DNA of 64,000 nt from a virus (IMGVR_UViG_2579779105_000001); one strand, 5' to 3'; counted from the first letter of the stretch, positions 9,491 to 55,682 are shown. Notes: generated by a model from the sequence alone, not told the origin. Translations and numbers: made by a program.

Positions 9491-9506
9491 CAAATTTCTA
9501 ACATAG
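9491..9506 (+). promoter_or_regulatory. operator-like motif AAATTTCTAACATAG
   Basis: Member of the recurrent TTTCTAACA(T) motif family, upstream of the RepL-like gene. Confidence 0.45.
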
Positions 9507-9593
9507 TGTATTTATATACACTGTTGATTCTGTCCGATGTGATCGAGTAGGATCGCGGTCACTGCTCCGGTAGCGACTGCCAAAAAAAGCAAA

Positions 9594-9616
9594 AGCCGCT
9601 GAGAAGCGGCTTTTTG
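9594..9616 (+). terminator. rho-independent terminator
   Basis: AGCCGCT-GAGA-AGCGGCT hairpin followed by TTTTT. Confidence 0.6.
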
Positions 9617-9676
9617 GTGTATAAATCCACTGGCATAGATTTATACGGTAGATAGATTTTTTCACGGAACTATCTG

Positions 9677-10639
9677 GTGAATATTTTAAATTCAGTTTCA
9701 GTAACTTTCAACACTTCTGAGTATAAAAACAACACTGAATACCACAAAAAAATCAAAGGTCATCAGTTGAGTTTTTTTGCTCGTCATATCGGTCTTCTTT
9801 CCCCTTCACATAGCGCCATTATTGCCGAGTTCGCCAACCTGGCAGGGGCTACCGATGAATACATGATCCGTCGCTCATATGCTGATATGTCCGAGATTAC
9901 AGGACGCAGTATTTCTACTGTACGCCGGGCATTTGCTGAAGCGACGAAGTGCGGAATGCTTGTTAGGCAACATCAGGTAGCGAATAACAATGCCCAGGTG
10001 TGTAACGTATATCGGTTTACGACACAATTTCTCCACTTCATTCATGTAGCAATGGAGATAGGGGGTAAGCAGGGCATCAAATTTGCCAACGCCACAAAAC
10101 TGGTTAAGCAGTTGATTTCAAAGGTTCGTTATTTTTTTGAAACTGGGAACCCCCTGTTCAAATTGAACAAGTCCCCCCATGTTCAAAATGAACAGCCAAT
10201 AGAAAATAAGAGTCACTCTATAGCAAAAAGAAGAGAAAGATCATGCGCGGTTCAGCCAAAGGCTTCACCAGCAGATAGTTCTCAAGCGGATAATGGGGTG
10301 CTGGATAAAAAACCAGTGATCAGGGAAGAACATACCAACCGCTGCCTGGCGGCGGCAAAAGCGAGAGCTGCAAAGCGTCGTTCAGACGAGGGGCACGCAA
10401 AACGGCAGGCTCTGTATCGTACCGCTGAAAAGTTGGCAAAAAAATTTGCATGGATACGTAGTGCCGCTACCGCAGTGAATAAGCCTAAACAATCCAGCGC
10501 CCTGGATTTCTCAATGGATTATTCTGGCTCCCAGGGGTGTGCAACCATTGGTGAAGCCTTTGACCTGATGAAACAGCGTGGCTATCGGTCTGAATTTGAC
10601 CGGGAGGATTGGTCAATCCCTGCGGGATTCAGGGGATGA
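9677..10639 (+). CDS. HTH DNA-binding protein, possible lytic replication initiator (RepL-like)
   Basis: GTG start; HTH-like segment GRSISTVRRAFAEATKCGML; tandem palindromes inside the gene; operator upstream. Confidence 0.3.
   Translation: MNILNSVSVTFNTSEYKNNTEYHKKIKGHQLSFFARHIGLLSPSHSAIIAEFANLAGATDEYMIRRSYADMSEITGRSISTVRRAFAEATKCGMLVRQHQVANNNAQVCNVYRFTTQFLHFIHVAMEIGGKQGIKFANATKLVKQLISKVRYFFETGNPLFKLNKSPHVQNEQPIENKSHSIAKRRERSCAVQPKASPADSSQADNGVLDKKPVIREEHTNRCLAAAKARAAKRRSDEGHAKRQALYRTAEKLAKKFAWIRSAATAVNKPKQSSALDFSMDYSGSQGCATIGEAFDLMKQRGYRSEFDREDWSIPAGFRG
10150..10194. repeat. two tandem copies of C-run + TGTTCA-N3-TGAACA palindrome (origin-like)
   Basis: CCCCTGTTCAAATTGAACA and CCCCATGTTCAAAATGAACA are adjacent inside the RepL-like ORF. 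Confidence 0.45.
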
Positions 10640-10693
10640 CCTGTGTGCCTACAAAACATCCCAATGATCGGCAAATGCTCGCTCGATGATTTG

Positions 10694-10724
10694 TATTAGA
10701 AAATTAATTTGCTGTTTCTAAATC
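10694..10724. promoter_or_regulatory. pair of operator-like motifs (TATTAGAAAAT / TGTTTCTAAATC)
   Basis: Variants of the recurrent motif at the head of the immI-like region. Confidence 0.35.
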
Positions 10725-10929
10725 GGAATGTATGATCTGCATCATCGACTGAAGTCATCCATTGCTGAAATTTTTAGTTGATCTTCCATGTTTTCAGGCT
10801 TATATTCATGCCGTCGTAGCAAATTCTGCGACCAGGTTTGACAGCCTGAATGTTAGTGCGGACAACCGCAGATTTCCGATATTGCGGTATTTTTGTGTCC
10901 GTAAACCGCGTTACGCCCGAATTATGGTG

Positions 10930-10995
10930 GGGCGTGATGGGGAGGCTTCGGCCTGCTGGTTTCACTAACGCCAGTCTGTCAACCCTGTCACGTCC
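10930..10995 (+). ncRNA. candidate c4-like antisense RNA
   Basis: GGCTTCGGCC tetraloop hairpin, then CACTAAC and CTGTCAA, complementary to GTTAGTG and TTGACAG found at 10838-10858 and again at 11006-11041 over the downstream SD; boundaries approximate. Confidence 0.3.
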
Positions 10996-11052
10996 TGCCA
11001 CCTGTTTGACAGCGGGTAGCAGGTTGTTAAACCTGTTAGTGAGGCCGTAACT

Positions 11053-11277
11053 ATGGTTAATGCCAATCCTTGCTCACGTCCAGAATTCATCTGGCGTTTC
11101 CACTCCCTGCAAAAACACTGCGATCACTTCGCAATTGCCGCAACCGAAAAAGAAGCCCGTTCTCTGATCCCTGATCAGCATGGTGTTCTTACTGGTCGTT
11201 TCTCTACTTCCCCACAACCAAACACTAATCCCTGGTATCGCAATATTACCAATCCCAGCATTGCGGAGGCACACTGA
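11053..11277 (+). CDS. small Icd-like protein
   Basis: 74 aa; GAGG SD overlaps the putative antisense target; a paralogous sequence lies near 46470-46640. Confidence 0.4.
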   Translation: MVNANPCSRPEFIWRFHSLQKHCDHFAIAATEKEARSLIPDQHGVLTGRFSTSPQPNTNPWYRNITNPSIAEAH

Positions 11278-11393
11278 TGGATATCTGCCTTCATGAATGC
11301 TTTTAACCGGATGATGTCGGAGGCTGAGCACCGAGGAAAACGCTGGTATCACCCCAAAATGGGGCAATTCCAGGTGATCGGTTGGGGAGGTGA

Positions 11394-11594
11394 GTGATGG
11401 ACATCATGCAGGCGGTAAAAAAAATCAGGGAAGAACAGGCTGAAGTGTGCCGCCGTAAAGCATGGAGTGTTGGTGTATGGGCCTGGCCTGATAATTACTC
11501 TACTACCGGATGGTTTTGTATTAATGGACTCCAGATCCGGGAAGTTGATTTATCGACGGCTGATATAGTCGGTAATGATTGGTTCGTGACTTGA
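11394..11594 (+). CDS. small hypothetical protein
   Basis: 66 aa; GGAGG SD; followed by a terminator. Confidence 0.35.
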   Translation: MMDIMQAVKKIREEQAEVCRRKAWSVGVWAWPDNYSTTGWFCINGLQIREVDLSTADIVGNDWFVT

Positions 11595-11602
11595 AGCGTG
11601 AT

Positions 11603-11628
11603 GCCCCGGCCTGGTCGGGGCTTTTTTC
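11603..11628. terminator. rho-independent terminator (GCCCCG...CGGGGC + TTTTTT)
   Basis: Hairpin with T-run on + strand and A-run on the other side; lies between convergent genes. Confidence 0.6.
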
Positions 11629-12112
11629 ATGCCTCATTAGTTGAGGTTGCTGCGTCTCCGACTGGTAACAGAGCGGTATTGCGTGGTTCGCCAGCAGGCC
11701 AGCGATAGCCAGACACTCTTGATGTTGGGAATGCGCGAATATTAACCGCATCCCCCTGGTTCCCACCCAGGACAAGCAGATCGCCATTGGCGCGGCGTCC
11801 GACAACGAAGCCTACGTGCCCACCGCCTACGCGGGTAAATACAACGATACATCCGTATGCCGGTGTATCTAATTTCTCGCCCCAATCCAGATAGGATTTT
11901 GCCGACTCAAATCTTGTTGAGCGGATGCCTACACGTTCCAGCATTGCACCGACAAATGCTGCGCACCACGGCGTTTCATCGTCTTTAATTCCGCCGCGCT
12001 TGATGTCGCGCCAAAACTGAACGATTTCAGGGTTGTGTTTAGCGCCTTTTATTTCAGTCAGGCCAATGTGCTTACGTGCTTCAATTAGCCAGCGAGGTTC
12101 AATGTTTGCCAT
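11627..12112 (-). CDS. TIGR02594-family putative peptidoglycan hydrolase (NlpC/P60-CHAP-like)
   Basis: 161 aa; conserved core WCAAFVGAML...GGHVGFVVG typical of the phage-associated TIGR02594 family (recalled). Confidence 0.55.
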   Translation of the reverse strand: MANIEPRWLIEARKHIGLTEIKGAKHNPEIVQFWRDIKRGGIKDDETPWCAAFVGAMLERVGIRSTRFESAKSYLDWGEKLDTPAYGCIVVFTRVGGGHVGFVVGRRANGDLLVLGGNQGDAVNIRAFPTSRVSGYRWPAGEPRNTALLPVGDAATSTNEA

Positions 12113-12186
12113 ATTTTTTTCCGGTCATGGGTTAATAAGTAGGCAAACTATGGGGGGTATGTGATTTTGACGGTAGTATCGTCCCC

Positions 12187-15100
12187 GTGAAAATAACATT
12201 CTCCATACCCTCTCAACCGTACCGCATAGCGGATTTTTTACGGTTTAGAGGGGGTAATCCTTTGGATAAACTACTTCATTCAATCAGTGAAGCTTCCAGC
12301 TTAGGCGAACTGATTGAAATTGTTAGTCGGTTGCATAAATTACGTGCTGTTGCGACCTTTGGCGTTAAGAAAGTCGATGGTGTCAGCATTCAAAAAACAC
12401 GGCGGGCAGCAAACAACGCCGCAGTAGAGCTTCTTAATTCCCTTCCGCCCGGCTTCGATGGGGCGAAATTAACTGACGAACAGCGTCAGATTCTTGCCGG
12501 GTATACCGGTGAAGGCGGCCTGACAGATGGTGAGGGCAGCCAATACGAATACTACACGCCACAGTTTATGGCTGAAGGTATATGGGATCTGTTTGCTGAC
12601 TACGGTATTGATGGCGGGCACGTACTGGAACCATCAGCGGGCACAGGTATTTTCCAGGAGACAAAACGACAGGGCATGATAATGACCAGCGCCGAACTGT
12701 CTCCGATTTCCGGTCGAATAAACCAGCTTTTGCACCCGGAAGACGATGTGAATATCGGGGCGTTTGAGGCGCTGGCGGCGAAAGACGCAATGTATGATCA
12801 CGCTGTTGGTAACGTACCGTTTGGTGAAGGGCGTTCCGGTGTCGCCGGGCTTGATCCGGCATATGCAAACGAGAAGAACGTTGGCAATTACTTTGTGCTG
12901 CGCACGATCGACAAGGTTAAGCCTGGTGGGCTTATCGTATTGGTGGTGCCGAATGGCATGACCGATGGTACGAAATATAAAAAATTGCGCGATAAAGTCA
13001 GCCGTAAAGCGGAATTTTTGGGCGCACATCGTATGCCTTCCGGTACGTTCAGCGAATCCGGTACAGATACCGTGGTGGACGTATGGGTATTGCGTAAACA
13101 CCCGGAAACCTTCCTGGAGATGATCCCCGACACGGATGATTCAACACTCAAATCGGCAAACGTCCTTTGGGATACCTTCCTCAAAGGAAAATGGTTTACA
13201 ACCGAAGGGAAGCGATTTGTTTACGGCGACATGGAACGTACCAGCTTCCGCAATACCCTGGTGGTGAAAAAGGACGGTCGTGTATCCAATGAGTCGATGA
13301 AAACCGCGCTATCTCGTCGCTTTGATAGTCGCATCAATTGGGATTTGCTCGGCGTAACTACTCAGGCATGGCAGGGCGCGAAAGTGGGCGATAAACGCCT
13401 AGTAGGCGGCATCTGGCATGAGTTTGATGGCCTGAAATGGGTCAAGGACACGACAACCAAATCCTCCGCGCTTGATGTAAGTCGATATGGTGTTTCGACA
13501 TTCGGTGATCTGCAAACAACGTTCCAATCAACAAACGGCATTCTGGCTCTGTCATGGGGGCAGATATCCGCGATCGCTTCCGACTATCCATCGGTTATCA
13601 GTGATGAAGTAGCGGCAATGATTCGCTTTGCTGGGAAACAACGCGAAAAAGACCGTGAGCGCATTATGCGCGGTGCGCTGATCGGGCAACTTATCAATAA
13701 AGCGCTGGATAAGCGTAACCTTGGTGAAAACGTCGATGATGAACTGGCTGATGCCGCACGTCTGACGGCTGCCGAAGTTGCTAAATATGGCCCACCACAC
13801 GCCATTAAGCTAAACGACATTACCGAAGCGGGCGCGAAGAACTGGCTGACATTCACCGGGAACGTCAATCAGGACGGTGAAGCATCCGATCTGCTGTCCG
13901 GACGGCTTGATGTTAGCAAAGGGGCTGCTGGTATTGATTTCACTCGTCCGGAACAGGTTGTGACACACCTTTTCAGCGATGTTGCCCTTAATCCTATCAA
14001 TCTTGATGACTTCCGCGAGGCGTTTAAAGGCGAACTGCCAGAAGACGACGATCAAGCACTGGAATACCTGGCGAAATTCGACGATATCGCTATTGATGGA
14101 TATGGTTGCCTGCTACCGATGGGCCGTGCCACTAGCGGTGATATTAAATCAAAAGTGGCACTGCTGGTGGGCTGGCGAGACGCGTCCACAGGAGAGCGGA
14201 AGGCCAACTTTGAGCGCCAGCTTTCAAAAATCGAAGAGAAACGCACGTTTACACCGCTGAACAAAGTCACGGTAAACCTTAACGCACGGTGGTTGGATCG
14301 CCGCCTGATAAAAGAGTTCCTGGCAGAGCAGGGCTATGACGAGTTTAAGTATACAGAACCCGACCTTAAGGTTGAGAACGGCATTCTGGTATCCCCGGAC
14401 GATTACGAAGGTAAGGACGGGGTATTTACTGGCTACCAGCTACGAACCGTAAACGGCAAAAACGGGAACGAGTTCAAGAAAGCGAATAACAAAGATGGCT
14501 TCCTGAATCAGCTTGAGAACTACCTGAACGGTGTTAAACCGCGCGGACAGAACGCTAACGAGTACCTGGACAAAATCGCCCAGCTTGAGACGAGTTTTAA
14601 CGACTGGTTAAGAACTCACCCGCAGGCAGACCAGATCGCCCGCGATTATAACGACGCCTTTAACGGTTATATTCCATTTACCCATTCAGACGCACCCCTG
14701 GGGCTTGAAGGCATCAGCGGGAAACGTATACCGCTTTCTTACCAGAACGAAGAAGTTCGTCGTCTGTCGGAAGATGGGCGCGGGATTATGGGATTCGGAA
14801 CTGGTTTGGGTAAAACGACGACCGCGCTGGCACTGGAAGCCTATAACTTTGAAACCGGGCGAACCAAACGTACCTGTATCGTTGTTCCAAAGGCCGTATA
14901 CCAGAACTGGTATCACGAGGCACAGAGCTTCTACAGTGCAGATGCCTTCGCCAATATGATGTTTATCGGTCTGGACGAAGTGCGCGATGGTGACGGAAAT
15001 ATTCAGACTGCCCCAGTGCTCGACCAGGACGGCACCCCGCGACTTGATAACGACGGCAATCCGATCACCCGTAATGTTGTTAAAGAATCCGCCAGTGCCG

Positions 15101-17778
15101 TTATCGCTCAACGCATGAACATGATCCCATCGTCGAACTGGCGAACGGTCATCATGACAAAAGAGCAGTTCGCATCTATCCCGTTGCGCGATGAAACCAT
15201 CGGAGAAAACTCACAGCAGGCTGTCTTTAATGCCGCCGAAATGGGGCGTCTTGACCTGGCGTCAGGCAAGCACCGTGATGCGCAGAAGAAGAACAAGATT
15301 AAGGACCAGGCCGCGAATACCGGTACAGCGAAGAAGCAGAATATCCCGTACTTTGAGGATATGAACTTCGATAGCGTAATTGCCGACGAAGGGCACAACT
15401 ACCGCAACTCCTTTGGTGCCGGGCGTGAAGCGGGGCAACTGGCATATTTACCTAATCCGGCGGTATCCAAAATGGCCCGTGACATGGCTGTAAAAGCTGC
15501 GTACATGATGAAACGTCACAATGGGCGCGGCGTCGTAATGCTGACAGCAACTCCGCTGGTTAATAGCCCTATTGACGCCTTCAACATGCTGTCAACGGTG
15601 ATCCCTCAGCACGAGTGGATGCACATGGGGATTATTACCCCTGACGACTTTGTCCGAGTGTTCGGTAAAACAGCCACTGTTCAGGTCCAGAAAATTTCTG
15701 GCGAAGTGGAAGAGAAACAGGGGCTGGTGGGCTTCCAGAACCTTGATGGTCTGCGTGGCATTTTCCACCGCTGGACAACGCTTAAAACGGCTTCCGATGT
15801 TGGTGCAACGGTAAAAATCCCGGATATCGTCGAAAACACCTTGCAGATCCCAATGACTCCAGAGCAGCAAGCAGCTTATGAAGAGCTTCGTAAACGCGCG
15901 CAGGAGTTAAGTCGTGGTGATGACGTCACTGTCGATGATGAAGGCAATATCACTCGCGGGAAACCGGATGATTTCATTTTCTCTATCATTCGCGACATGG
16001 ATAAGGTCGCTATCGACCCGGATCTTTACGCCAGCGCTATCACATTCCAGTTCCCTGTAGAACTTACTGAACAGGTGAAGTCTATAGCTAATAACCTACC
16101 AAAAGTGGCTGGTGGGAAAGCGGCAGACGATGCAGAAGAAGCAGAGGAGGATGCGACCGGAGGCCTGGTCAGTACCCGTACCAGCAAGGTTGTAGCTACA
16201 ACATTTAGTGAGCATCCAAATCACGTCGAATTGCGTGCCAGCATTGACCTGGAGGCTGAAATACTCAAGGCAATTGCTGATGCAGGCATCGACATGAAAC
16301 AGGTGTCACACCCGATCCCGCCTAAGTATGCCGCACTTATCGAGAACCTTCGTGAAGGGCTTAAGAACGGTAAGCAAATTATCTTTATCGACGAGAAAGC
16401 CCAGCACCAGAAACTACGTCGCATCATTGCCAGTGCGTTGCAAATGCCAGAGCAGGAGATAGGCATTATCAATGCTACGACTGTTAGCCAGGCTGGTGGT
16501 GTTAAGCTGAAAAAGGTCAAAAAACCGACCGAACCGACGCCAAACAAAGACGGTGAATACAAAGAAGGCGCATGGGAAACCTACTACAGTAAACTGGCCC
16601 AATATGAGGATTATCTCTCTGCTAAAAATGATGCTGGCCTTGAGGGGATGGAAGGTATTGCTGCCGACTATAACGAAGGGCGCACGCAAATCATTATCTG
16701 TAACAAGAAAGCCGAAGTAGGTATCAACCTGCATATTGGAACGACCGATATTCACCACCTGACACTACCCTGGACTCCTGCCAGTATCGACCAACGAAAT
16801 GGGCGCGGTGCGCGCGTAGGTTCTCCGCAAGAGAAGGTTAATGTTCACTATTATTGTGGCAAAGGCACATTCGATGACTTCCGTCTGGATACGCTTAAAC
16901 GTAAGAAAGACTGGATCAAGATGGTGATGACCTCCGATATGTCAGAGATCGCCAATGGTGATGCGGATGACGCTGATGAACGCGCCATTATGCTGGCGGC
17001 AAATCCGGAAGAACGACGCGCAATTATGGCTCGTCAGTCGAAAGAACGTGAGGAACGCCTGCGACTTAAAGCGCAACGCGAAGCCAATAATGCTCTCGAT
17101 AACTACCTGAAAGCGGCGAATGCTGCCGGGAAGGATATCGGCATGATGGAGGCAGAACTGAAAAGCGCGATGGAGCAGGCGCAACGATACCAGAGTGATC
17201 TGGATGGACTGATTAAGAGCGGCATCAACAAAAACGGACAGAAATATACGCTTTCAGCACTAAGCAAAGCTAAAAAAAGAGTGCGTGAATTGCGATTTGC
17301 AATCACCAGGGCGAAGGACGCGGATACTGTTATGAAACGCTCTCGTGGTGATGTGGAGCGTGCTATTAAGTCTGGTGTGCTGGATATCAGTATCGATGTT
17401 ATTCAGAACCCGCAGGAGTATATGCGCACTGGCAAGAACATCCTGTTGCATAAAGGTAGTTACTACCGTGCAGTCATTGATGCTGAATACGAGACAACGG
17501 CGATTGTACGCGTGACACAAATTGAGGGCGAAAAAGCGCAATACACCTGCCGCGTCGCCTGGCTGGATAGAGCAAGTCGCAACTCTCGTTCTCCTGGCTC
17601 AACCATGACATTACCGTTTGACTCAGTGGTTGAAGCGGTAACATTTGAAGAGGGGGTGGCTGAATCACGAGAAATAGCGGCACGTGGTGTTCAAAGCCAC
17701 CAGCTTTCAACCTCTCTTTCTCGCGATCAATTCTATGACGCTATTCGTAGCGGTGTTATGCGGGTAACCGCACGCTGA
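12187..17778 (+). CDS. darB: DarB-like large polyvalent protein: N6-adenine methyltransferase + SF2 helicase
   Basis: 1863 aa; MTase motifs EPSAGTG and NVPFG; helicase Walker A GFGTGLGKTT and DEGH box; start (GTG 12187) uncertain. Confidence 0.7.
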   Translation: MKITFSIPSQPYRIADFLRFRGGNPLDKLLHSISEASSLGELIEIVSRLHKLRAVATFGVKKVDGVSIQKTRRAANNAAVELLNSLPPGFDGAKLTDEQRQILAGYTGEGGLTDGEGSQYEYYTPQFMAEGIWDLFADYGIDGGHVLEPSAGTGIFQETKRQGMIMTSAELSPISGRINQLLHPEDDVNIGAFEALAAKDAMYDHAVGNVPFGEGRSGVAGLDPAYANEKNVGNYFVLRTIDKVKPGGLIVLVVPNGMTDGTKYKKLRDKVSRKAEFLGAHRMPSGTFSESGTDTVVDVWVLRKHPETFLEMIPDTDDSTLKSANVLWDTFLKGKWFTTEGKRFVYGDMERTSFRNTLVVKKDGRVSNESMKTALSRRFDSRINWDLLGVTTQAWQGAKVGDKRLVGGIWHEFDGLKWVKDTTTKSSALDVSRYGVSTFGDLQTTFQSTNGILALSWGQISAIASDYPSVISDEVAAMIRFAGKQREKDRERIMRGALIGQLINKALDKRNLGENVDDELADAARLTAAEVAKYGPPHAIKLNDITEAGAKNWLTFTGNVNQDGEASDLLSGRLDVSKGAAGIDFTRPEQVVTHLFSDVALNPINLDDFREAFKGELPEDDDQALEYLAKFDDIAIDGYGCLLPMGRATSGDIKSKVALLVGWRDASTGERKANFERQLSKIEEKRTFTPLNKVTVNLNARWLDRRLIKEFLAEQGYDEFKYTEPDLKVENGILVSPDDYEGKDGVFTGYQLRTVNGKNGNEFKKANNKDGFLNQLENYLNGVKPRGQNANEYLDKIAQLETSFNDWLRTHPQADQIARDYNDAFNGYIPFTHSDAPLGLEGISGKRIPLSYQNEEVRRLSEDGRGIMGFGTGLGKTTTALALEAYNFETGRTKRTCIVVPKAVYQNWYHEAQSFYSADAFANMMFIGLDEVRDGDGNIQTAPVLDQDGTPRLDNDGNPITRNVVKESASAVIAQRMNMIPSSNWRTVIMTKEQFASIPLRDETIGENSQQAVFNAAEMGRLDLASGKHRDAQKKNKIKDQAANTGTAKKQNIPYFEDMNFDSVIADEGHNYRNSFGAGREAGQLAYLPNPAVSKMARDMAVKAAYMMKRHNGRGVVMLTATPLVNSPIDAFNMLSTVIPQHEWMHMGIITPDDFVRVFGKTATVQVQKISGEVEEKQGLVGFQNLDGLRGIFHRWTTLKTASDVGATVKIPDIVENTLQIPMTPEQQAAYEELRKRAQELSRGDDVTVDDEGNITRGKPDDFIFSIIRDMDKVAIDPDLYASAITFQFPVELTEQVKSIANNLPKVAGGKAADDAEEAEEDATGGLVSTRTSKVVATTFSEHPNHVELRASIDLEAEILKAIADAGIDMKQVSHPIPPKYAALIENLREGLKNGKQIIFIDEKAQHQKLRRIIASALQMPEQEIGIINATTVSQAGGVKLKKVKKPTEPTPNKDGEYKEGAWETYYSKLAQYEDYLSAKNDAGLEGMEGIAADYNEGRTQIIICNKKAEVGINLHIGTTDIHHLTLPWTPASIDQRNGRGARVGSPQEKVNVHYYCGKGTFDDFRLDTLKRKKDWIKMVMTSDMSEIANGDADDADERAIMLAANPEERRAIMARQSKEREERLRLKAQREANNALDNYLKAANAAGKDIGMMEAELKSAMEQAQRYQSDLDGLIKSGINKNGQKYTLSALSKAKKRVRELRFAITRAKDADTVMKRSRGDVERAIKSGVLDISIDVIQNPQEYMRTGKNILLHKGSYYRAVIDAEYETTAIVRVTQIEGEKAQYTCRVAWLDRASRNSRSPGSTMTLPFDSVVEAVTFEEGVAESREIAARGVQSHQLSTSLSRDQFYDAIRSGVMRVTAR

Positions 17779-17870
17779 AAAGAGAGCGCCGGGAACTAAA
17801 AGAGCGTTTAACCAGGCTCAATCAGCAATGCATTGATTATCAAGGCGAAGGCGTCACACTGCGTAAAAAG

Positions 17871-18503
17871 TTGGCTACAGCGCAGAGCATTATCGAAACA
17901 TTAAAGCGAGAGTGCTCACAGCTTGGTCACGATCTGAACCGTGCTTGTGGCATGGGACAAAGACCAGAGACATTTCCACTTATGTATGATGGGCGGGATG
18001 CCATTGCCTACATCCATGAGTATCCGCACGGCCTGGTTGCGGAAACTGGGCAGCGTGGCGAAGCACTGCTGACGGCTAATTACCATCAACAAATCAGAAC
18101 CAATCGCCTGTTAACGATGGATGTGATCCCATCGGTGTGGGGAACGCCGCTTTACTATCGCCTGCCGGGCTTCGAAAAGGACTGGAATACCGACATAGAC
18201 GAATGTCTCGCAGATAAAATTATGGCGTACCTGGAGACGGATTTTCCGCGCTTATATCGCCGGATTATGGACTCTAAGGATGCGCCAATCGATGAATTAA
18301 AAATGCGTCCGGAGACGCTGGAGGCAATCAAGCAGACGGAGTTTGATACTGTATTCAGTGTGGCCTGCATTCCAAGCTGTTTCCATGAAAGCATTCCGTT
18401 CATGCAAGGAGATCGTCGTCAGGAAATCATTGACGCTTGCCGGGTATGGGCGAACGAATGGGATAAGAAGAATGGGGGTGTAGAAGATCTTTACGGGAAA
18501 TAA
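17871..18503 (+). CDS. hypothetical protein
   Basis: 210 aa; track start is TTG; frame stays open upstream to 17751 across the darB stop; an in-frame ATG exists at 17952. Confidence 0.4.
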   Translation: MATAQSIIETLKRECSQLGHDLNRACGMGQRPETFPLMYDGRDAIAYIHEYPHGLVAETGQRGEALLTANYHQQIRTNRLLTMDVIPSVWGTPLYYRLPGFEKDWNTDIDECLADKIMAYLETDFPRLYRRIMDSKDAPIDELKMRPETLEAIKQTEFDTVFSVACIPSCFHESIPFMQGDRRQEIIDACRVWANEWDKKNGGVEDLYGK

Positions 18504-18505
18504 TG

Positions 18506-18516
18506 TGTTAGAAATC
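18506..18516 (-). promoter_or_regulatory. operator-like motif (reverse complement AGATTTCTAACAC)
   Basis: Variant of the recurrent motif, directly downstream of the 17871..18503 ORF. Confidence 0.35.
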
Positions 18517-19156
18517 TAAAATTACGATTCGAATGTATTGATTGTGAAGGTAACTTAACATAGAATTTTCCTTGCTGGTGGGCGGCACCCACGTTTCGCT
18601 TGCTGGGCTTGATAGTCACTTATTGGTTATTGTTCGCCCACCAGCATTTAACAAATTAAAGCGTTAGAAAAGTATAGTAACGCAAGAGCACGCTTTGGCA
18701 CCGTGCAGGCCAAAGTTCAGCAGGTTTAGTGCGGAAAGTGGTTTCAGAGAGAGCACTTTGCGGAGTAAACGACAGTACATGTTGAGCCACGGAAGGTCTT
18801 TTTAAGGTGTTCATTGATGATGGTCCGGCAGAGAGTAACGGTACATGCTGCATCTAATCATCAATGCACATCTTCAACATTAAGGAGGCATAGGGATTTT
18901 TGTGGCGGTTACCTTTTGCCCTGAGTCTCCTTAATGTTGCGGTAATGCACCTATGCGGATGTGGCCTTGCATTGTGTCTTGAAAGAATGGGGTAAGGCCG
19001 GGGACATCCCCAGGGGGAGGCACCCCCGCTGCAACGAACAGCCACAGACGGCAGTCGAGTGATGGGAACGTGCAAAGACTTTAAACCTCGTTATGGCTGG
19101 CGTGGCAAACGCGACAACCGAGACAGAGCGGTGACGGGCGGAGAGAGTGCCGCATC

Positions 19157-19278
19157 AAGAAAGAAGCCGACTTGTGATCCCTTTCAGCGGGCATTTGAAA
19201 GTGAATCCAGTTCAGGCAGTCGGCTTCTTTCTTGTGTGAGATGTAGCGTATTTGCCCATCTTCGGGTGGGCTTTTTTA
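19157..19278 (+). ncRNA. candidate small RNA: 16-bp inverted repeat stem-loop plus intrinsic terminator
   Basis: AAGAAAGAAGCCGACT (19157-19172) pairs with AGTCGGCTTCTTTCTT (19218-19233); then GCCCA-TCTTCGGG-TGGGC + TTTTTT at 19254-19278; no convincing ORF. Confidence 0.35.
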
Positions 19279-28053: not shown

Positions 28054-28085
28054 TAACTTTAAATAATGGGGATTATTTAAAGTTA
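28054..28085. other. rox/lox-like recombination site, 14-4-14 (TAACTTTAAATAAT-GGGG-ATTATTTAAAGTTA)
   Basis: Perfect 14-bp inverted arms around a 4-bp asymmetric spacer, 152 bp upstream of the recombinase gene; can also be read as a loxP-like 13-8-13 site at 28053-28086. Confidence 0.65.
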
Positions 28086-28237
28086 GGCTATAATCATGTG
28101 TAGATGAACAGTATTGACATCACTGAAAATACGTGCCTCGAATCAAAGGCTTGTATTTTGAAAATTAACTTATAGCTACCCTGTCATTTTTATATTTTTC
28201 GCGTAGCGTCATATGTATATAGAGGCGAAATAGTTTC

Positions 28238-29266
28238 ATGGGAGAATTAATTATCTCTGGCAGTTCCGGTGGTTTTCTGCGCAACATTGGCAAAGAGTAC
28301 CAGGAAGCCGCAGAAAACTTTATGCGGTTCATGAATGACCAGGGGGCTTATGCGCCGAATACTCTGCGCGACCTCCGGTTGGTGTTTCATTCCTGGGCGC
28401 GCTGGTGTCACGCTCGCCAGCTCGCCTGGTTCCCGATCTCACCAGAAATGGCCCGCGAGTATTTTCTTCAGCTGCATGATGCCGATCTGGCTTCGACCAC
28501 CATTGATAAGCACTACGCCATGCTGAACATGCTGCTTTCGCATTGTGGCCTTCCGCCACTTTCGGATGATAAAAGTGTTTCTCTGGCTATGCGGCGCATC
28601 CGGCGCGAAGCGGCAACTGAAAAAGGCGAACGAACAGGCCAGGCTATACCGCTGCGGTGGGACGATCTGAAACTGCTCGACGTCCTGTTGTCCAGGTCAG
28701 AACGGCTGGTGGACCTGCGCAACCGGGCTTTTCTCTTTGTTGCATACAATACGCTGATGCGTATGTCGGAAATCTCGCGTATTCGTGTAGGAGATCTGGA
28801 CCAAACAGGTGACACTGTCACGCTACATATTTCACACACGAAGACAATAACGACCGCCGCCGGGCTTGATAAGGTGCTTTCCCGTCGCACTACCGCTGTG
28901 CTGAATGACTGGCTGGATGTTTCCGGGCTTCGCGAACATCGTGACGCAGTGCTGTTCCCGCCGATACACCGTAGCAATAAGGCCAGGATCACGACAACGC
29001 CCCTTACTGCACCTGCAATGGAGAAAATATTCAGCGACGCCTGGGTGTTGCTGAATAAAAGAGATGCTACGCCAAACAAAGGGAGATACCGGACGTGGAC
29101 CGGGCATAGTGCACGCGTCGGGGCCGCTATTGATATGGCTGAAAAGCAGGTGTCTATGGTGGAGATCATGCAGGAAGGAACCTGGAAGAAACCGGAAACA
29201 CTTATGCGGTATCTGCGCCGTGGCGGTGTGTCTGTGGGGGCTAATAGCCGCCTGATGGATTCGTAA
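28238..29266 (+). CDS. Cre/Dre-family tyrosine recombinase
   Basis: 342 aa; aligns along its length with P1 Cre as recalled (WFP, LLRIAEIARIRV-like RMSEISRIRVGD, GHSARVGAA); lox-like site upstream. Confidence 0.85.
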   Translation: MGELIISGSSGGFLRNIGKEYQEAAENFMRFMNDQGAYAPNTLRDLRLVFHSWARWCHARQLAWFPISPEMAREYFLQLHDADLASTTIDKHYAMLNMLLSHCGLPPLSDDKSVSLAMRRIRREAATEKGERTGQAIPLRWDDLKLLDVLLSRSERLVDLRNRAFLFVAYNTLMRMSEISRIRVGDLDQTGDTVTLHISHTKTITTAAGLDKVLSRRTTAVLNDWLDVSGLREHRDAVLFPPIHRSNKARITTTPLTAPAMEKIFSDAWVLLNKRDATPNKGRYRTWTGHSARVGAAIDMAEKQVSMVEIMQEGTWKKPETLMRYLRRGGVSVGANSRLMDS

Positions 29267-29270
29267 ATTA

Positions 29271-29284
29271 AATTTCTAACACAT
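29271..29284 (+). promoter_or_regulatory. operator-like motif AATTTCTAACACAT
   Basis: Recurrent motif at the head of the rightward early operon. Confidence 0.45.
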
Positions 29285-29339
29285 CTTTTTAGATTAACGC
29301 CTTTGATGTAAAGTACCCTCGCCTATTTAGGAGGGTGCT

Positions 29340-29684
29340 TTGCAGAGTCAAATCACGGAATCAAGACGCTTCAAGGTGGATGGTTACACCGTAACCTTCG
29401 CTGCTGGTGTTAAGAACAGTCATGCTGTCGTTGTGTTCGGCATCATGACCGGGCTTGAGGCCGTCCCTGTGTTTACCCTCGAAAAAAACTGGCGAAATCT
29501 GGAGGAAGCAGAAAGCTACGTCCGGAAAGTAACCATCATTGCCGCCGAAAAACTCCTGGCCCACTATCAGGAAAATTATCGCACTATGGTCGAGAAGATT
29601 AATCTCGCTTTCACTCGCCCCACTACCGGCTTTATTGCACCGGATACTAATGCAGGTCGCTATCCTGCAAGGGGGCGTCGGTGA
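29340..29684 (+). CDS. hypothetical protein
   Basis: 114 aa; TTG start 5 nt after a GGAGG SD. Confidence 0.4.
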   Translation: MQSQITESRRFKVDGYTVTFAAGVKNSHAVVVFGIMTGLEAVPVFTLEKNWRNLEEAESYVRKVTIIAAEKLLAHYQENYRTMVEKINLAFTRPTTGFIAPDTNAGRYPARGRR

Positions 29685-30157
29685 AAACTTATTACACATC
29701 TCTGAATTGTTACCCGTCTTCCTATCCAGAATTATCCGGGAAGCTGTTAGCTCTATTAGCTAAAGCACCTACGGAATGGTTTAAGCCAGTCGTTATCAAT
29801 CCACACTTCCTGGATTACGGATCTGTTCGCACTCGTAACGAACTCAAAAACCTACTGGCGCATGGATTCATTCGACACCGTGCCGCGAAAGGCTATCAGT
29901 TAGCGATTGCGCCAGAAGAGGCTGTGCGGCTATTCGCATATCGTGACAGCCAGACAAAAGCTCGGGTAATAGCTCAAATACTTCATAACGGCAGCACCTA
30001 TGCCCGCCAGTTTGGCGGCGACACGTCGCAGTTCTTGCGGGCGGTGCGATCGCTGGAGGAGCAAGGAGTTATTGAAAGTTCCTGTCTTCCTGTTCCTACC
30101 GTTCCACATATCAAACGTCGGGTTTACACCTTCACGCAGAGAGCTAAAAAACAATGA
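29681..30157 (+). CDS. hypothetical protein
   Basis: 158 aa; GTG start overlapping upstream stop. Confidence 0.4.
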   Translation: MKTYYTSLNCYPSSYPELSGKLLALLAKAPTEWFKPVVINPHFLDYGSVRTRNELKNLLAHGFIRHRAAKGYQLAIAPEEAVRLFAYRDSQTKARVIAQILHNGSTYARQFGGDTSQFLRAVRSLEEQGVIESSCLPVPTVPHIKRRVYTFTQRAKKQ

Positions 30158-30648
30158 TTTACGTAAAAGTGAAACGCCTACATCCGGCAGCAAAACTTCC
30201 AGCTTATGCCACCTCCGGATCGGCGGCGATGGATTTTGAGGCTGTTGAAATAAAACCATGCGTCGATAGCAATGGTGCAATTTCCTCAAGCTGGTGGGTG
30301 TATACCGGACTGGCTATGGAGATCCCGCCCGGCTGGTGTCTGAAACTCTATCCGCGATCCGGATTGGGCTGCAAAAAACATACTCGCCTGGCTAACTGCG
30401 TAGGAATTATCGACTCCGATTATCGCGGCGAAATCATGGCAAAACTGATTACTGATCCCGGCGGGGAAGGCGTTTGTCTCAAGCCTGGAATGGCTGTCAT
30501 GCAAGGAATTTTTGAACGTGTTGAACAAGTCTCACTAGTCGAGGTTGAGGAACTCAACGAAACGGAACGTGGTGCTGGTGGCTTTGGTAGCACATCGGAA
30601 GGCCACTTTGAAATTAAGCGTTCACCGCTTCAGTACGAAAAGTTATAA
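30154..30648 (+). CDS. dut: dUTPase
   Basis: 164 aa; dUTPase motif III GIIDSDYRGE and flanking conserved blocks. Confidence 0.85.
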   Translation: MIYVKVKRLHPAAKLPAYATSGSAAMDFEAVEIKPCVDSNGAISSSWWVYTGLAMEIPPGWCLKLYPRSGLGCKKHTRLANCVGIIDSDYRGEIMAKLITDPGGEGVCLKPGMAVMQGIFERVEQVSLVEVEELNETERGAGGFGSTSEGHFEIKRSPLQYEKL

Positions 30649-30662
30649 GCAGAGAAAAGACT

Positions 30663-31364: not shown

Positions 31365-31370
31365 TTTAAC

Positions 31371-40245: not shown

Positions 40246-40286
40246 AATGTATACCGACTCTGTTTTGTTCCGAGCGGTAAAATAAT

Positions 40287-40300
40287 ATGTTAGAAAACTA
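40287..40300 (-). promoter_or_regulatory. operator (reverse complement = TAGTTTTCTAACAT)
   Basis: Exact 14-mer, intergenic between two leftward genes; weaker half-site at 40308-40318. Confidence 0.5.
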
Positions 40301-40343
40301 AAATCAACGTTCTAACGTAATTTTGAGTGCGTAAATGATTTGA

Positions 40344-45021: not shown

Positions 45022-45189
45022 AAGTTGATGAGAGCAAAGAGTTCAATGCCCAGCTCAAACAACGCCAGGACAGTGAAAAACAGGACATATAGCAACCCAA
45101 TTTCTGTATCGGATTGCTGGTGGATTGCACTAATTGCGACAAGCATCATGACCTCCTGATATAGCGTCTGAAAAAAGTATCTTCATTTT

Positions 45190-45222
45190 GTGTTAGAAAA
45201 TCAATTTTGATTTTCTAACATG
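45190..45222. promoter_or_regulatory. palindromic double operator TGTTAGAAAATCAA-TT-TTGATTTTCTAACA
   Basis: Perfect 14-bp inverted repeat made of the recurrent motif, between the divergent ref-like gene and the leftward accessory cluster. Confidence 0.6.
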
Positions 45223-45265
45223 TTTGATCAACCATAGCGGCTATGTAGACAAACCGGGTATTTCT

Positions 45266-45841
45266 ATGAAGCAAAGCTATTGGGAGAAACAGACACAAAA
45301 AGCCCTGCAAAAACTGGCTGATCCGAAATGGCGGGAGGAACAAAGGGCAAAGCGTCTTCAGCAAGCTCAACGCCAGCAGCAGCGTGCGCGAGAAAAAGCC
45401 GCATCGCCTGAATATCGGCAAAAGAAAATTGAAAAAGCGAAGCAATATGAACAGCGAAGAAAAGAGAAGGCCGCTTCTGCTCCTGTCAAAAAAACTCGCG
45501 CGTCACGCGGCCTGAAAGGCAGAACACTCACAGCAGATGAGCGCCGGATACAAACTGCCATCGGTGCTCTCCCCTGCATTGCCTGCCATATGCACGGACA
45601 GCATAGCCCTGTGGTATCCCTGCACCACATCTTCGGAAGAACAGCAGAGAACGCGCATAAATACGTCCTCCCTTTGTGTAAATGGCACCATCAACACGCA
45701 GCGCCAGCAGAGATCCGCGAGCAATACCCCTGGTTGGTTCCTGTTCATGCTGATGGAAAAATAGGCGGTAAAGCAGATTTCAGGCGGCACAATGCTGATG
45801 AAATGACGTTGTATCAGATGGCGATTGAATTGACGAATTAG
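45266..45841 (+). CDS. ref: Ref-like RecA-dependent HNH nuclease
   Basis: Basic low-complexity N-terminus then a Cys/His HNH-like core (CIACHMHGQH ... LCKWHH); operator upstream as for P1 ref (recalled); track start at 45224 is TTG. Confidence 0.55.
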   Translation: MKQSYWEKQTQKALQKLADPKWREEQRAKRLQQAQRQQQRAREKAASPEYRQKKIEKAKQYEQRRKEKAASAPVKKTRASRGLKGRTLTADERRIQTAIGALPCIACHMHGQHSPVVSLHHIFGRTAENAHKYVLPLCKWHHQHAAPAEIREQYPWLVPVHADGKIGGKADFRRHNADEMTLYQMAIELTN

Positions 45842-45852
45842 TTTTCTAACAT
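45839..45852 (+). promoter_or_regulatory. operator TAGTTTTCTAACAT
   Basis: Exact 14-mer overlapping the ref-like stop. Confidence 0.5.
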
Positions 45853-46173
45853 TTTAAGTTGAATTATAAATTTCTCCGATGTACATTCACTACCGATTGG
45901 CACACCGGTCAACTTTTTGAGACAAACTGTATAGTTTTTCGTATTATTGCCGCCGCCATACCTATGGCGGTGCAATATAGGTGGCTGAAAAGCCCCCGTT
46001 GACTCACGGTGTTCCAGCCTTTATTGCGCCGCCACCAGACCGTGGAACAGTCGATGGCGGCTCCGAAAGCAAGGAGTCACTACACTATGAACAGCTACTG
46101 TCTTTTCCCGTCACTCGTTGTCCGCCACTCACGCGATAATCTGCATTCTTTACTCGCGCTGGGGGTGTCAAAA

Positions 46174-46340: not shown

Positions 46341-46727
46341 AATACTGACTTTTGCGCCCTGGCATTATCGTGGGGTATATTTCTACGGCACCTTAGAAAA
46401 ACGGGTGCCGGGATTGGAACCTCACGCGGTAGCTCCTTAACTTAGTCAAAGGAGGCTGCCAATATCGCTACTATCCCCACCCCAACTCATTCTGAATTTA
46501 TCTGGCGTTTCTATTCCTGCCAAAAACACCTGTATATCTGCGTCATGGCTGCAACCGAAGCAGAAGCTCGTTCATACCTTCCCCTGGCGGAACGGGGCGT
46601 AATTGGTGATAAACAGATACTGGGAAACAGTGGAACTACATGAGGCGGGAGTAATTCGTGACCTGATGGAGAATTCCGTTCCCCGCCGCTATCGTGCAGG
46701 GAACGGCATCTCCGTGGTTAAAGGTGT

Positions 46728-47120: not shown

Positions 47121-47140
47121 TTCTGCCTCCGCTGCGTAAC

Positions 47141-47764: not shown

Positions 47765-47981
47765 GCAAACAAAATGAAGTTTTATGTTATAAAAACAATT
47801 AACTACATAAACATGATTTAGGCCAAATTTCGGTTAAAAAATAAAATCCACCAAAAGTGGTTGACACTATTTTGGAAATCACAAACTGCACATAATCCAT
47901 CGCGCTAACGGCTCCCGTTGAAGGTTCTTTTGACGATTAACTTTCAGCCGAAGCGCGGTAGGGAGTCATAACGCCAAAGCA

Positions 47982-51553: not shown

Positions 51554-51570
51554 GTATGTGTTTTACTATA

Positions 51571-53237: not shown

Positions 53238-54001
53238 CTTCAAATAAAACCCTCCTGGCGCGAACAGGTGAATGGCAAACCTCACGCACAGGAAAATTCC
53301 AGACCACGGGCTTTGAAAACGTGGATAACGCGTTTGCGACGCTAATCAGCAACATTTTTTCTGATATCTTACTGGTGGCCCCCGCGCCGGAAGAAAAACG
53401 CTTTGCGTCATTCCTGAATCGTCCACCAGCAGAGCGTGTCTATGTGGCCCGTTTCGACAATGCGATCGAGTTTCTTAAAGCAGTTCGTCGCGCAAATGCC
53501 GGGCAAGGGAGAAAACCTGAAAACCAGAACATTAACCGGGATGCTCTCCCCCTGGTCAATATCTCACGCACTATGGATATCAATTATATCAACGATGATC
53601 AGCAGATTGACCGCAAAAAAGTAGCCAGTTTTTGCGAACCAGATACCGGAATGCCTTTAGCAGAACTGGAATACACCCAGGCCATTCTGACGTATGACGT
53701 TACGTTAATGGCAACTGATAAAGCGACCATGAGTCTGATGTGTAATTCGCTGGGCGCACGGCTTCGCCTGATGACAGGTACACAATTTGAAGCAACCACT
53801 CACCTTGTTCGTGTCCCGGTCCCGCTGATTTGCTCGATACAGGATGCCAAAGAAGTCGGCTTTACGGATGTTTCAGCACCAATTGGAGAAGAGCGTATTT
53901 ATGCCACACAAGCGCCGATAAGTGTGATTGCAGACGTGATCACAGCATGGGAGTTGGACGCAAAACGTATTATTACCGAAACCTCGATATCTATGGGGTG
54001 A
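53234..54001 (+). CDS. hypothetical protein
   Basis: 255 aa, coupled. Confidence 0.4.
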   Translation: MTSNKTLLARTGEWQTSRTGKFQTTGFENVDNAFATLISNIFSDILLVAPAPEEKRFASFLNRPPAERVYVARFDNAIEFLKAVRRANAGQGRKPENQNINRDALPLVNISRTMDINYINDDQQIDRKKVASFCEPDTGMPLAELEYTQAILTYDVTLMATDKATMSLMCNSLGARLRLMTGTQFEATTHLVRVPVPLICSIQDAKEVGFTDVSAPIGEERIYATQAPISVIADVITAWELDAKRIITETSISMG

Positions 54002-54004
54002 TAA

Positions 54005-54985
54005 GTGGCCCAGGAGTTACAACAATATTTTCTACAGTCAGTGCTCATTAACGATAACAAAGTGCCACGAGACTGGATTTTTACCGCAGTATATGTAGAA
54101 AAAACCAGCCTCAAAGCCCCTTTGCTAAAACTGGAAATTCATGACGCTACCGGCACCGTAATTGATGACTGGAAAGCCAAATACGGTGCATCGCTGGTGG
54201 CTGAAATGGGCGATCCAAACGGTAATGCAGGCACTTTTAAAACAGATTTCTTTGTTACGTCTGCAATGCTGGCTGGTGATGTTGTTACCGTTATTGCTGT
54301 CAGTGAAGACGTGCGCAGGTTTAAGATCCCCTCCCCGCGCACAAATTTACATACCAACAAAACACCAGACGCTATATTCAAGGCATATTCCGGCAAACTT
54401 AAAATTACCAGCAGCGTGCTAAAACGCGCAGTTACATATCATCTGAATGCTGGTGACAAACCGTCAAAAATGCTTTCGGAGATAGCGCGAGACAAAGGTG
54501 CATTGTGTTGGGTATGTCGGGGGGAATTTAACTTTTACACCCTGGCTGATCTGATGAAGCAAACGCCATCATTTACCTACGAGGGGAATAACCCTAAAGC
54601 AGAATACACTTTGTCCAAAATGCGCCTACTCCAACAGGAACATGCGACAACAGCAAAGAATCAATATCGTTTTGTTGGGTATTCCATGACCGATGGCTAC
54701 GTCGAATATGGCGATAGCTCACTCCCAGTGCGTTATATATCCGACTCTGATATGGAAACTCTTCGCAATATGCAGCTGTCTCTCGTCCCCAAAATGGATA
54801 TAGAAGTCGCAGGCAATCCTGATATAAAACCGGGGATGGTAATAGAGATTATCGTATACCGCTATGACCAGGAAAACCGCATTGATGAATCAATGCCCCG
54901 TAAGCTGATAGTAAAAAATGTTGCGCACTTTGAGGACCGCGTAGGCTACACAACACGAATGATATTGGGAGTGCCTAACAAATGA
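54005..54985 (+). CDS. hypothetical protein
   Basis: 326 aa. Confidence 0.4.
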   Translation: MAQELQQYFLQSVLINDNKVPRDWIFTAVYVEKTSLKAPLLKLEIHDATGTVIDDWKAKYGASLVAEMGDPNGNAGTFKTDFFVTSAMLAGDVVTVIAVSEDVRRFKIPSPRTNLHTNKTPDAIFKAYSGKLKITSSVLKRAVTYHLNAGDKPSKMLSEIARDKGALCWVCRGEFNFYTLADLMKQTPSFTYEGNNPKAEYTLSKMRLLQQEHATTAKNQYRFVGYSMTDGYVEYGDSSLPVRYISDSDMETLRNMQLSLVPKMDIEVAGNPDIKPGMVIEIIVYRYDQENRIDESMPRKLIVKNVAHFEDRVGYTTRMILGVPNK

Positions 54986-55635
54986 AGCGTAGAGCGCAAA
55001 TTGTTGGAACTGTGCACCCGGCAGGGCTTATGCGTGCTCAAGTCCGTGTTTTACCTGACTGGAATGGCGTTCCTGATGACGATCTACCCTGGGCGGAATA
55101 CCAGTTACCCATCGGGAACGCTTTTGTACCTACAGTCAAAGGTGACCTGGTCTGGGTAGAGTTTCCTTATTTAGATGTTAACGGTCGAATAGACACCAGA
55201 CGCCCAATGATAGTTGGTGCCGCTCAGGATGCGCCAGGCGGAGTTCCAAACGTCGCGCCGGAGGCGTCAGGCAATGGTAGCGGCTGGACGCCGCCTGAAG
55301 TAGACGGAGCGCCTCCCCGCCCGCAATTTTCGGCGACAAAAGATTTCGTTATTCACCGCAATAATGTGCTAGAAGTGCGAACGGCTGGCGGTGGATATGA
55401 AATAGCCAATACGGCAGCAGGTTCAAGGATTGGCATGAATGAGTCCGGGCAGATATATATCATTGGTCCGGCTGATGTAATCGTGAATGCAGGAGGGAGT
55501 GTTAACGTCAAATCAGCCAACAACATCAATGTTAATGGGGAAAATATTGCTGTCACCGCTAACGGGGACATAGCTTTCAAGGCAGGGGGAACCTTTCAGG
55601 CCACTGCTGGCAACTTCGATTTCAAGAAAGGATAG
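54982..55635 (+). CDS. hypothetical protein, possible baseplate spike (gpV-like N-terminus)
   Basis: 217 aa; the N-terminal OB-fold-like pattern is only suggestive. Confidence 0.25.
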   Translation: MKRRAQIVGTVHPAGLMRAQVRVLPDWNGVPDDDLPWAEYQLPIGNAFVPTVKGDLVWVEFPYLDVNGRIDTRRPMIVGAAQDAPGGVPNVAPEASGNGSGWTPPEVDGAPPRPQFSATKDFVIHRNNVLEVRTAGGGYEIANTAAGSRIGMNESGQIYIIGPADVIVNAGGSVNVKSANNINVNGENIAVTANGDIAFKAGGTFQATAGNFDFKKG

Positions 55636-55650
55636 AAAATGCACCCATTT

Positions 55651-55682
55651 GTGTTAGATAATTAACGCGTATTTTCTAACAT
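55651..55682. promoter_or_regulatory. pair of operator-like motifs (GTGTTAGATAA ... GTATTTTCTAACATAAA)
   Basis: Inverted pair of the recurrent motif directly upstream of hrdC. Confidence 0.5.

Follow-up and report, generated by a model that had tools for sequence, protein, structure and literature searches.

The C1 repressor of phage P1, like the Tus protein, recognizes its asymmetric site in monomeric form, and P1 and D6 are classically heteroimmune in vivo. A single repressor acting at many asymmetric sites across a genome is also known from mycobacteriophage L5, whose gp71 binds 'stoperators'; gp71 is a helix-turn-helix protein unrelated to the C1 described here, and its sites lie mostly within transcription units and act in an orientation-dependent manner. 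A published account of P1 (PMC8546580) counts 22 dispersed C1 operators, gives their asymmetric 17-bp consensus as ATTGCTCTAATAAATTT and has the repressor act in concert with Coi, Lxc, Ant and c4. Here we analyzed a 64,000-nucleotide stretch of viral DNA (IMGVR_UViG_2579779105_000001; hereafter the window), in which an earlier note had proposed that a dispersed 14-bp motif marks a C1-like regulon with an immunity specificity of its own. Our comparisons indicate that this motif very probably represents the operator set of a D6-type C1 encoded at 26803..27840, which would bind the sites and block the adjacent promoters, including that of its own gene.

A 4-kb probe taken from the region of the candidate repressor gene matched Escherichia phage D6 at 97% identity and ~75 plasmids of E. 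coli, Salmonella and Shigella at 97-99%, and the c1 region had matches in 126 plasmid records. In a whole-genome comparison, the window matched D6 in reverse complement (56509..91159, then 1..31795) at 88-98% identity, with some blocks replaced; most of its length is ~97% identical to D6, whose record is annotated gene by gene as a relative of P1. Judged by its sequence, the window is a D6-type plasmid-prophage that is distantly related to P1. A single C1 serving numerous scattered asymmetric operators, plus an immI region with a C4 RNA, is the textbook design of P1 and is expected in this phage group. What is added here is the D6-type operator, the full list of its sites, their phased bipartite form and a three-class code based on TCTAA. 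Neither D6 record in GenBank (MF356679 and AY753669) has any operator annotated, and no description of D6-type operators was found in the GenBank records or the searchable literature, the D6 genome paper lying outside this scope, so that an earlier description is possible.

The dispersed motif and the repressor gene

The exact 14-mer TAGTTTTCTAACAT occurs three times in the window, at 27856 (+), 40287 (-) and 45839 (+), as the earlier note had reported, compared to 0.00 copies in 100 dinucleotide-preserving shuffles. When up to three mismatches were allowed, 17 matches were found against 5.7 expected and a shuffle maximum of 13. The variants listed in that note are all present and no more than 1-3 bases off (9491, 10693+10711, 18505, 23422, 29269, 45190/45208 and 55651/55669), and the pair described as palindromic indeed has perfect 14-bp inverted arms with TT between them (45190-45221). 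Beyond these, we found weaker partner sites in register at 23404, 40305 and 18523, a further site at 18661 and a weak half-site at 27942. A gene map was obtained by transferring the D6 protein annotation, which leaves 7.1 kb intergenic and 56 kb coding, and on this map the claim that all of the sites are intergenic holds. To make the result independent of the previous choice of sites, all 8-mers were counted. The three most intergenic-specific of the window were GTTAGAAA (10 intergenic, 0 coding), TGTTAGAA (9 and 0) and TTAGAAAA (11 and 1); the TTCTAAC core has 11 of its 12 copies in intergenic DNA (binomial P = 6e-10).

Alignment of 13 sites revealed information across ~21 bp, with the consensus aaATTwrwTTTCTAACAyaaa. 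A 21-bp weight matrix built on this alignment gave 13 sites of at least 19 bits at 11 loci, all 13 of which were intergenic, and at a threshold of 14 bits the proposed matrix scan yielded 14 hits against 0.76 in Markov-1 shuffles. Three of the sites, those behind ref, dre and pmgS, abut the stop codon of that gene or contain it, and in P1, likewise, operators often directly follow a stop codon. The sites and the associated RNA elements are listed in Table 1. Every window site has a D6 counterpart, and D6 has two more, at 10319 (pmgR/pmgS junction) and 54205 (gene 23/orf52 junction).

Table 1. Candidate D6-type operators and immI RNA elements in the window (bits for operators refer to the 21-bp matrix; paired values are for the two half-sites).
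Feature	Coordinates	Strand or half-sites	Location	Score	Conservation	P1 counterpart
O-repL, single	9487..9507	+	pro/repL junction, lytic replicon	24.7 bits	kept in D6, pEF-4	OrepL (formerly Op53)
O-c4(1), bipartite	10690..10727	strong 10693-10706 (-), weak 10711-10724 (+); 18-bp register	head of immI copy 1	29.3 bits		
c4-a1b1 target element	10800-10852	+	immI copy 1	54.4 bits, Rfam RF03163, above gathering score		
C4 antisense RNA	10920-11005	+	immI copy 1	68.8 bits, Rfam RF01695, above gathering score		
O-tRNA-a	18502..18539	strong 18505-18518 (-), degenerate partner 18523-18536	directly after pmgS stop	28.7, 6.7 bits		Obanab
O-tRNA-b, weaker second site	18658..18678	-	same leader as O-tRNA-a	19.5 bits (leave-one-out 10.9)	D6 counterpart at 8914 better, 22.8 bits	
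O-lpa, bipartite	23401..23438	weak 23404-23417 (-), strong 23422-23435 (+); 18-bp register	75 bp upstream of lpa, late-gene activator gene	13.1, 28.1 bits	pEF-4: both cores, equal spacing, spacer sequence changed	Olpa
O-c1, single strong	27852..27872	+; exact 14-mer 27856-27869	16 bp upstream of c1 start codon	29.1 bits	kept in D6, pEF-4 amid diverging flanks	
Weak half-site TTTCTAAAG	27942..27955	-	upstream of c1	3 mismatches to 14-mer	TTAGAAAA block kept in pEF-4 despite differing neighbour bases	
O-post-dre, single	29265..29285	+	directly after stop of dre (Cre-like recombinase), before orf117-orf116-dut-isaA	27.9 bits	kept in D6, pEF-4, L090; also in Leclercia pE1_003 with its own motif type	
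O-pdcB, bipartite	40284..40321	exact 14-mer 40287-40300 (-), partner 40305-40318 (+)	ppp/pdcB junction	30.1, 14.3 bits	kept in pEF-4	
O-ref/orf88, symmetric bipartite	45187..45224	both	120-bp divergent region orf88 (-)/ref (+)	29.4, 25.8 bits	block conserved in D6, pEF-4	Oref
O-c4(2), single	45835..45855	+	overlaps ref stop, head of immI copy 2	27.6 bits		Omat, same place
Two weak matches, doubtful members	47784..47844	-	upstream of ORF 47141-47764; otherwise invariant C of TCTAA altered	13.2, 11.0 bits		
O-hrdC, bipartite	55648..55685	both	gene 5/hrdC-dmt junction	24.8, 19.6 bits	both halves kept in D6, pEF-4; spacer variable	Odmt (formerly Op68)

At six loci the motif is accompanied by an inverted partner in a head-to-head arrangement, with the 14-mer starts exactly 18 bp apart and the cores exactly 21 bp apart (10693/10711, 18505/18523, of which the latter is degenerate, 23404/23422, 40287/40305, 45190/45208 and 55651/55669), and five sites are single (9491, 18661, 27856, 29269 and 45839). 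Spacings of 21 bp from TTAGA to TCTAA numbered five in the window and four in each of D6 and the related plasmid pEF-4, whereas P1 and a Leclercia relative had none; the two pentamers have only 27 and 39 copies in the window. Inverted partners were looked for in the Leclercia plasmid pE1_003 and none was found, its sites being single only. P1, for its part, has a bivalent operator at Obanab, in which the two sites overlap tail to tail, unlike the spaced head-to-head pairs of the window. Since 21 bp corresponds to two helical turns, paired half-sites would face the same side of the DNA, which suggests that two repressor molecules bind one DNA face at these loci. We further infer, less firmly, that binding of two C1 molecules to the phased pairs is cooperative and that they may be held together by a helical C-terminal extension of ~100 residues that P1 C1 lacks.

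The c1 gene lies on the minus strand and encodes 345 amino acids that are 97% identical to D6_1, a 'prophage repressor, similar to P1 gene C1'. The gene is placed between pacB and the rox/dre module, as P1 c1 is between pacB and lox/cre. Pairwise BLASTP of the window and P1 proteins gave 20% identity over 242 amino acids (E = 5e-8), and both matched phrog_1678 from end to end (E = 1.4e-167 for the window C1 and 2.6e-140 for P1 C1). PF27008 (Phage_P7_repressor_C1) is on record for homologues of the window C1 with 31-97% identity, and the NF041318 phage_rep_C1 model scored 25.3 bits over residues 7-240 against an equivalog cut-off of 500 bits. By these matches the window C1 is a distant member of the P1 C1 family and not an equivalog. 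The previous nomination of this gene as the candidate repressor is thereby supported by the D6 annotation, by the PHROG it has in common with P1 C1 and by its PF27008 homologues. An exhaustive profile search of 1.84 billion representatives found only 102 clusters of the C1 family, which fall into two length classes, one long (~345-380 residues) and one short and P1-like (~250-290). The ~100 residues that the long class has in addition at its C-terminus are predicted to be all-helical; the window C1, unlike P1 C1, has 62 more residues, mostly in this extension.

Operator classes and C1 lineages

C1 operators annotated in the P1 RefSeq record were extracted and aligned. They comprise Oref, Omat (ref end), Ossb, Oc4, OrepL (at kilA/repL), Orlf (directly behind repL), Odmt (ahead of uhr-hrdC-dmt), Obanab (ahead of the tRNA/ban operon), O26, Oppp, OpmgRa/b, OpmgT and Olpa, and the extraction reproduced the consensus ATTGCTCTAATAAATTT together with three further operators near c1. 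This consensus, which the earlier note had given and which agrees with both the P1 record and the published account (PMC8546580), is absent from the window. The view that the sites stand at the heads of operons of the type controlled by C1 in P1 was borne out for 8 of the 11 loci, which have a positional P1 counterpart; the matched units are ref, the end of ref, repL, c4/icd, lpa, hrdC-dmt, the tRNA operon and c1. As in P1 and P7, therefore, a homologous repressor is accompanied by many dispersed asymmetric sites of ~17-21 bp with a TCTAA core. Unlike in P1, the bases that flank the core differ: aligned on TCTAA, the 27856 copy AGTTTTCTAACATAAAA has 10 of 17 positions in common with the P1 consensus, and the two matrices do not cross-match. 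The P1 matrix reached a maximum of 11.6 bits in the window, compared to 22 hits of at least 12 bits in P1 itself, and the D6-type matrix a maximum of 13.6 bits in P1, while each matrix retrieved 13-22 sites in its own genome. At 14 bits or more, the D6-type matrix had no hit in P1 or in Leclercia pE1_003 and 14-15 hits in the window, D6 and pEF-4.

The motif follows the clade of the repressor. Among 78 related loci, P1-type C1 is associated with GCTCTAAT, D6-type C1 with TTTCTAAC and a clade with 31% identity with ATTCTAAG, the TCTAA core being common to all. In pEF-4, whose C1 is 70.6% identical to that of the window, and in the contig L090 (52%), the TTTCTAACA cores are kept at matching junctions amid diverged intergenic DNA, and the 21-bp phase of the pairs is likewise kept. 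Leclercia plasmid pE1_003, with a C1 of 31% identity, lacks the D6-type motif; its top intergenic-specific 8-mer is ATTCTAAG (9 intergenic, 0 coding), and its motif, with the consensus GATAGwrATTCTAAGG, stands upstream of ref, at two places upstream of c1, downstream of the cre-like gene and of pmgS, and beside pro. The same class was also found at L037. The pacB gene of pE1_003 is broken by a Tn5403-family transposon.

Core densities were determined per 10 kb in the 78 IMG/VR loci, which were fetched by C1 alignment, with ~0.3 expected by chance; many of these loci are closely related, hence they do not represent 78 independent events. The 26 loci with a D6-type C1 had densities of 2.43 for the D6-type core, 0.32 for the P1-type core and 0.11 for the Leclercia-type core. 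The corresponding values were 0.43, 4.71 and 0.04 in the 51 loci with a P1-type C1 and 0.48, 0.48 and 2.38 in the one locus with a C1 of 32% identity.

Explanations for the motif

The covariation of motif and C1 type, the TCTAA core common to all classes and the positions shared with proven operators of P1 point to C1 as the obvious protein to bind these sites. In the mechanism that we propose, one repressor would keep many separate early or lytic units off, as in P1, from sites on or beside sigma-70 promoters. The units held would be the repL lytic replicon, the two immI modules (C4 RNA and icd), lpa, ref, the divergent orf88-ppp unit, pdcB, hrdC-dmt, the tRNA operon, the operon after dre and, through autoregulation, c1 itself. 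Recognition would retain the TCTAA core of P1 and alter its flanks. Because the flanking positions of the operators differ, no cross-repression between P1 C1 and D6-type C1 would be expected, which would amount to heteroimmunity.

Several observations weigh against this interpretation. The binding of C1 to the sites is deduced from sequence comparison, and the covariation is one of lineage with motif, in which any lineage-specific regulator would participate; because it tracks lineage and not c1 alone, the assignment to C1 rests on P1 homology and the common TCTAA core. A consensus promoter scan showed no enrichment (17 promoter-like sites against 24.8 in shuffles), several sites lack a convincing -35/-10 pair and the promoter calls are weak. 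O-c1 is oriented away from c1. Furthermore, a strong hairpin resembling a terminator (GCCGCTGAGAAGCGGC plus a T run) occupies 9585-9620, between O-repL and the repL start at 9677, and is conserved in D6 and pEF-4. Because this hairpin intervenes, direct control of repL by the 9491 operator is doubtful, and what the operator governs may be a short leader or read-through and not a simple promoter. A palindrome, GTGTATTTATATACAC, is found directly 3' of the 9491 operator.

The lineage argument would apply equally if the sites were operators of another phage regulator, such as an unannotated Cro- or Coi-like protein or the product of a small early ORF, and the absence of the P1 accessory factors Coi and Lxc indicates that the circuit is not a copy of that of P1. 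Such a regulator would nevertheless have to use a TCTAA core in common with the experimentally defined P1 C1 operator and sites at the same gene junctions, and the motif persists wherever a D6-type C1 is present (52-100% identity) although the accessory early genes vary; we therefore consider it improbable. Slightly less probable still is that the motif is a promoter element, either an early -10/-35 arrangement or a late box dependent on Lpa. It contains a -10-like TAACAT and -35-like TTGATT and TTAGTT, and most of the strong sites are oriented with the downstream gene; yet it is conserved over ~21 bp, six loci carry inverted pairs with a fixed 21-bp phase, and both the c1 site and the strong c4 half are directed away from the gene. 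The P1 late box, AAGTGACTT-N-TAnnnT, is unrelated, and the sites precede early and not late operons. When the late-promoter hypothesis was tried on the window, AAGTGACTT was unlike the motif and had one good match, at 48882, away from it, and the hypothesis was rejected.

A separate weighted promoter scan, the outputs of which are predictions, placed plausible promoter candidates over most sites, and the position of the motif relative to them varies (-35, spacer, -10 or upstream), which counts against a promoter element. O-c1 would cover the spacer and -10 of a leftward candidate, TTGTCA-17-AAAACT, and O-c4(1) the -35 and spacer of TTGCTG-16-TATGAT at 10709-10736. O-pdcB lies within the spacer of a candidate reading into pdcB (TTGATT-17-TATTTT), and each half of O-ref/orf88 lies in the spacer of a TTGATT-17-N6 candidate, one per direction. 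The best candidate of the set, TTGATT-17-TAGAAT at 18538-18566, follows O-tRNA-a. Finally, since both the motif and intergenic DNA are AT-rich, a compositional artefact could be envisaged. This is scarcely credible: none of 100 shuffles contained three exact copies, P1 and the Leclercia plasmid, of similar composition, had no hits of at least 14 bits, and the motif is kept in diverged relatives. The shuffles, the matrix scan, the conservation and these zero counts together refute chance.

Sequence searches of solved structures returned no match for the window C1 or for P1 C1. When the predicted C1 fold was compared with solved structures, Tus was the sole match, at a TM-score of 0.33-0.38, which is a lead only; a fold search of BFVD with C1 gave nothing significant, alignment of C1 profiles with Tus in hhalign gave a probability of 0.2-0.3% and hence no signal, and no Pfam or NCBIfam cross-match was seen between C1 and the Tus models TIGR02648 and PF05472. 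Tus, moreover, differs from C1 in that it has no sequence similarity to it and arrests replication forks rather than acting as a transcriptional repressor. On the reverse strand of 27852-27872, the exact copies, read as TATGTTAGAAAACTAAAT, resemble the Ter core, TATGTTGTAACTAAAG, except for a gap of two bases; ACTAA is missing from the remaining sites, and the likeness is probably a coincidence.

A joint reading, which we put forward tentatively and regard as possible without favoring it, is that the C1 family has a Tus-like, DNA-clamping fold without a helix-turn-helix, that its specificity has been re-coded around an invariant TCTAA into at least three classes (GCTCTAAT, TTTCTAAC and ATTCTAAG), and that the D6 branch has gained a C-terminal domain of helices along with operators phased by two helical turns, which would imply a cooperative binding mode that P1 lacks. 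If this were true, the Tus-like fold would explain the long-known monomeric recognition of asymmetric sites by P1 C1 and be its first structural account, and the immunity groups of these phage-plasmids, many of which bear resistance genes, would be predictable from sequence. Both D6-like and P1-like phage-plasmids are frequent in E. coli, Salmonella and Shigella and have been discussed as vehicles of resistance genes. With the operator of each C1 clade known, sequence alone would predict which elements exclude or tolerate each other and would identify the early genes under C1 control. Such knowledge would also help to spot elements that are no longer inducible, such as, possibly, that of the window, which has no antirepressor, and the repressor/operator pair would offer an orthogonal system beside the Dre/rox recombinase already in use.

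Neighbouring genes and the state of the element

In the 3' direction from O-c4(1), the a1b1 element and the C4 RNA are followed by icd1 at 11053-11277. Downstream of O-c4(2), a C4-like RNA at 45960-46039 scored 40.2 bits (E = 7e-6), under the gathering score of 45, and is followed by orf86, orf85 and a truncated icd2. This C4-like RNA after the 45839 site indicates that, unlike P1, the window has two immI-type modules, as previously noted in D6-like plasmids (PMC6799933). The D6 antirepressors of both modules are lost or truncated (window 11277-11400 and 46464-47764). Near the first of these regions, a 572-bp deletion has cut orf18 to its last 38 codons; in the second, the icd2-3'/orf82/pmgF/orf80/simB block has been swapped for two unrelated leftward ORFs, 46728-47120 and 47141-47764, which had no match in a Pfam search. 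A search of the window by tblastn found no homologue of Coi, Lxc, Ant1, KilA, C8, Ban or Ssb; the window thus differs from P1 in having no homologue of Coi, Lxc, Ant1/2, KilA, Ban or Ssb, with the C4 RNA and icd present. With both antirepressors gone and Coi absent, the element may not be inducible. In addition, a 3.8-kb deletion relative to D6 (D6 9827-13623; junction ~17760, in the region 12262-18503) has fused a truncated darB with pmgS, of which the last 245 codons remain, and removed pmgR, orf11, pmgM, orf13 and ulx together with the pmgR/pmgS operator of D6. The prophage is probably defective.

Downstream of O-tRNA-a, tRNA genes are found on the plus strand at 19738, 19816, 20357 and 21907, and the 18505 and 18661 sites therefore head the tRNA operon, an arrangement that matches the start of the ban operon under C1 control in P1. 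The four tRNAs (19738-21982) are Asn, Thr, Ser and Met/Ile-CAT. They are on the plus strand of a window that is the reverse complement of D6, and the D6 record lists its tRNAs (7145-7850) on the plus strand too, where the strand is probably wrong. An SPFH/Band 7 gene (20925-21752) lies among the tRNA genes, in place of tciA/tciB of D6.

A 19-codon ORF at 27924-27983 (+) runs divergently from c1, overlaps the 27942 half-site and has a good ribosome-binding site; pEF-4 has a 17-codon ORF at the matching place with a different peptide sequence. The dmt gene (56578-58872) encodes a single 764-amino-acid fusion of C5-cytosine and N6-adenine methyltransferases, as in P1, and is represented by two genes in D6. 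The Chi sequence GCTGGTGG is strikingly frequent, with 86 copies in the Leclercia plasmid; CACCAGCA has 28 copies in the window, and CCACCAGCA is the commonest 9-mer of pEF-4.

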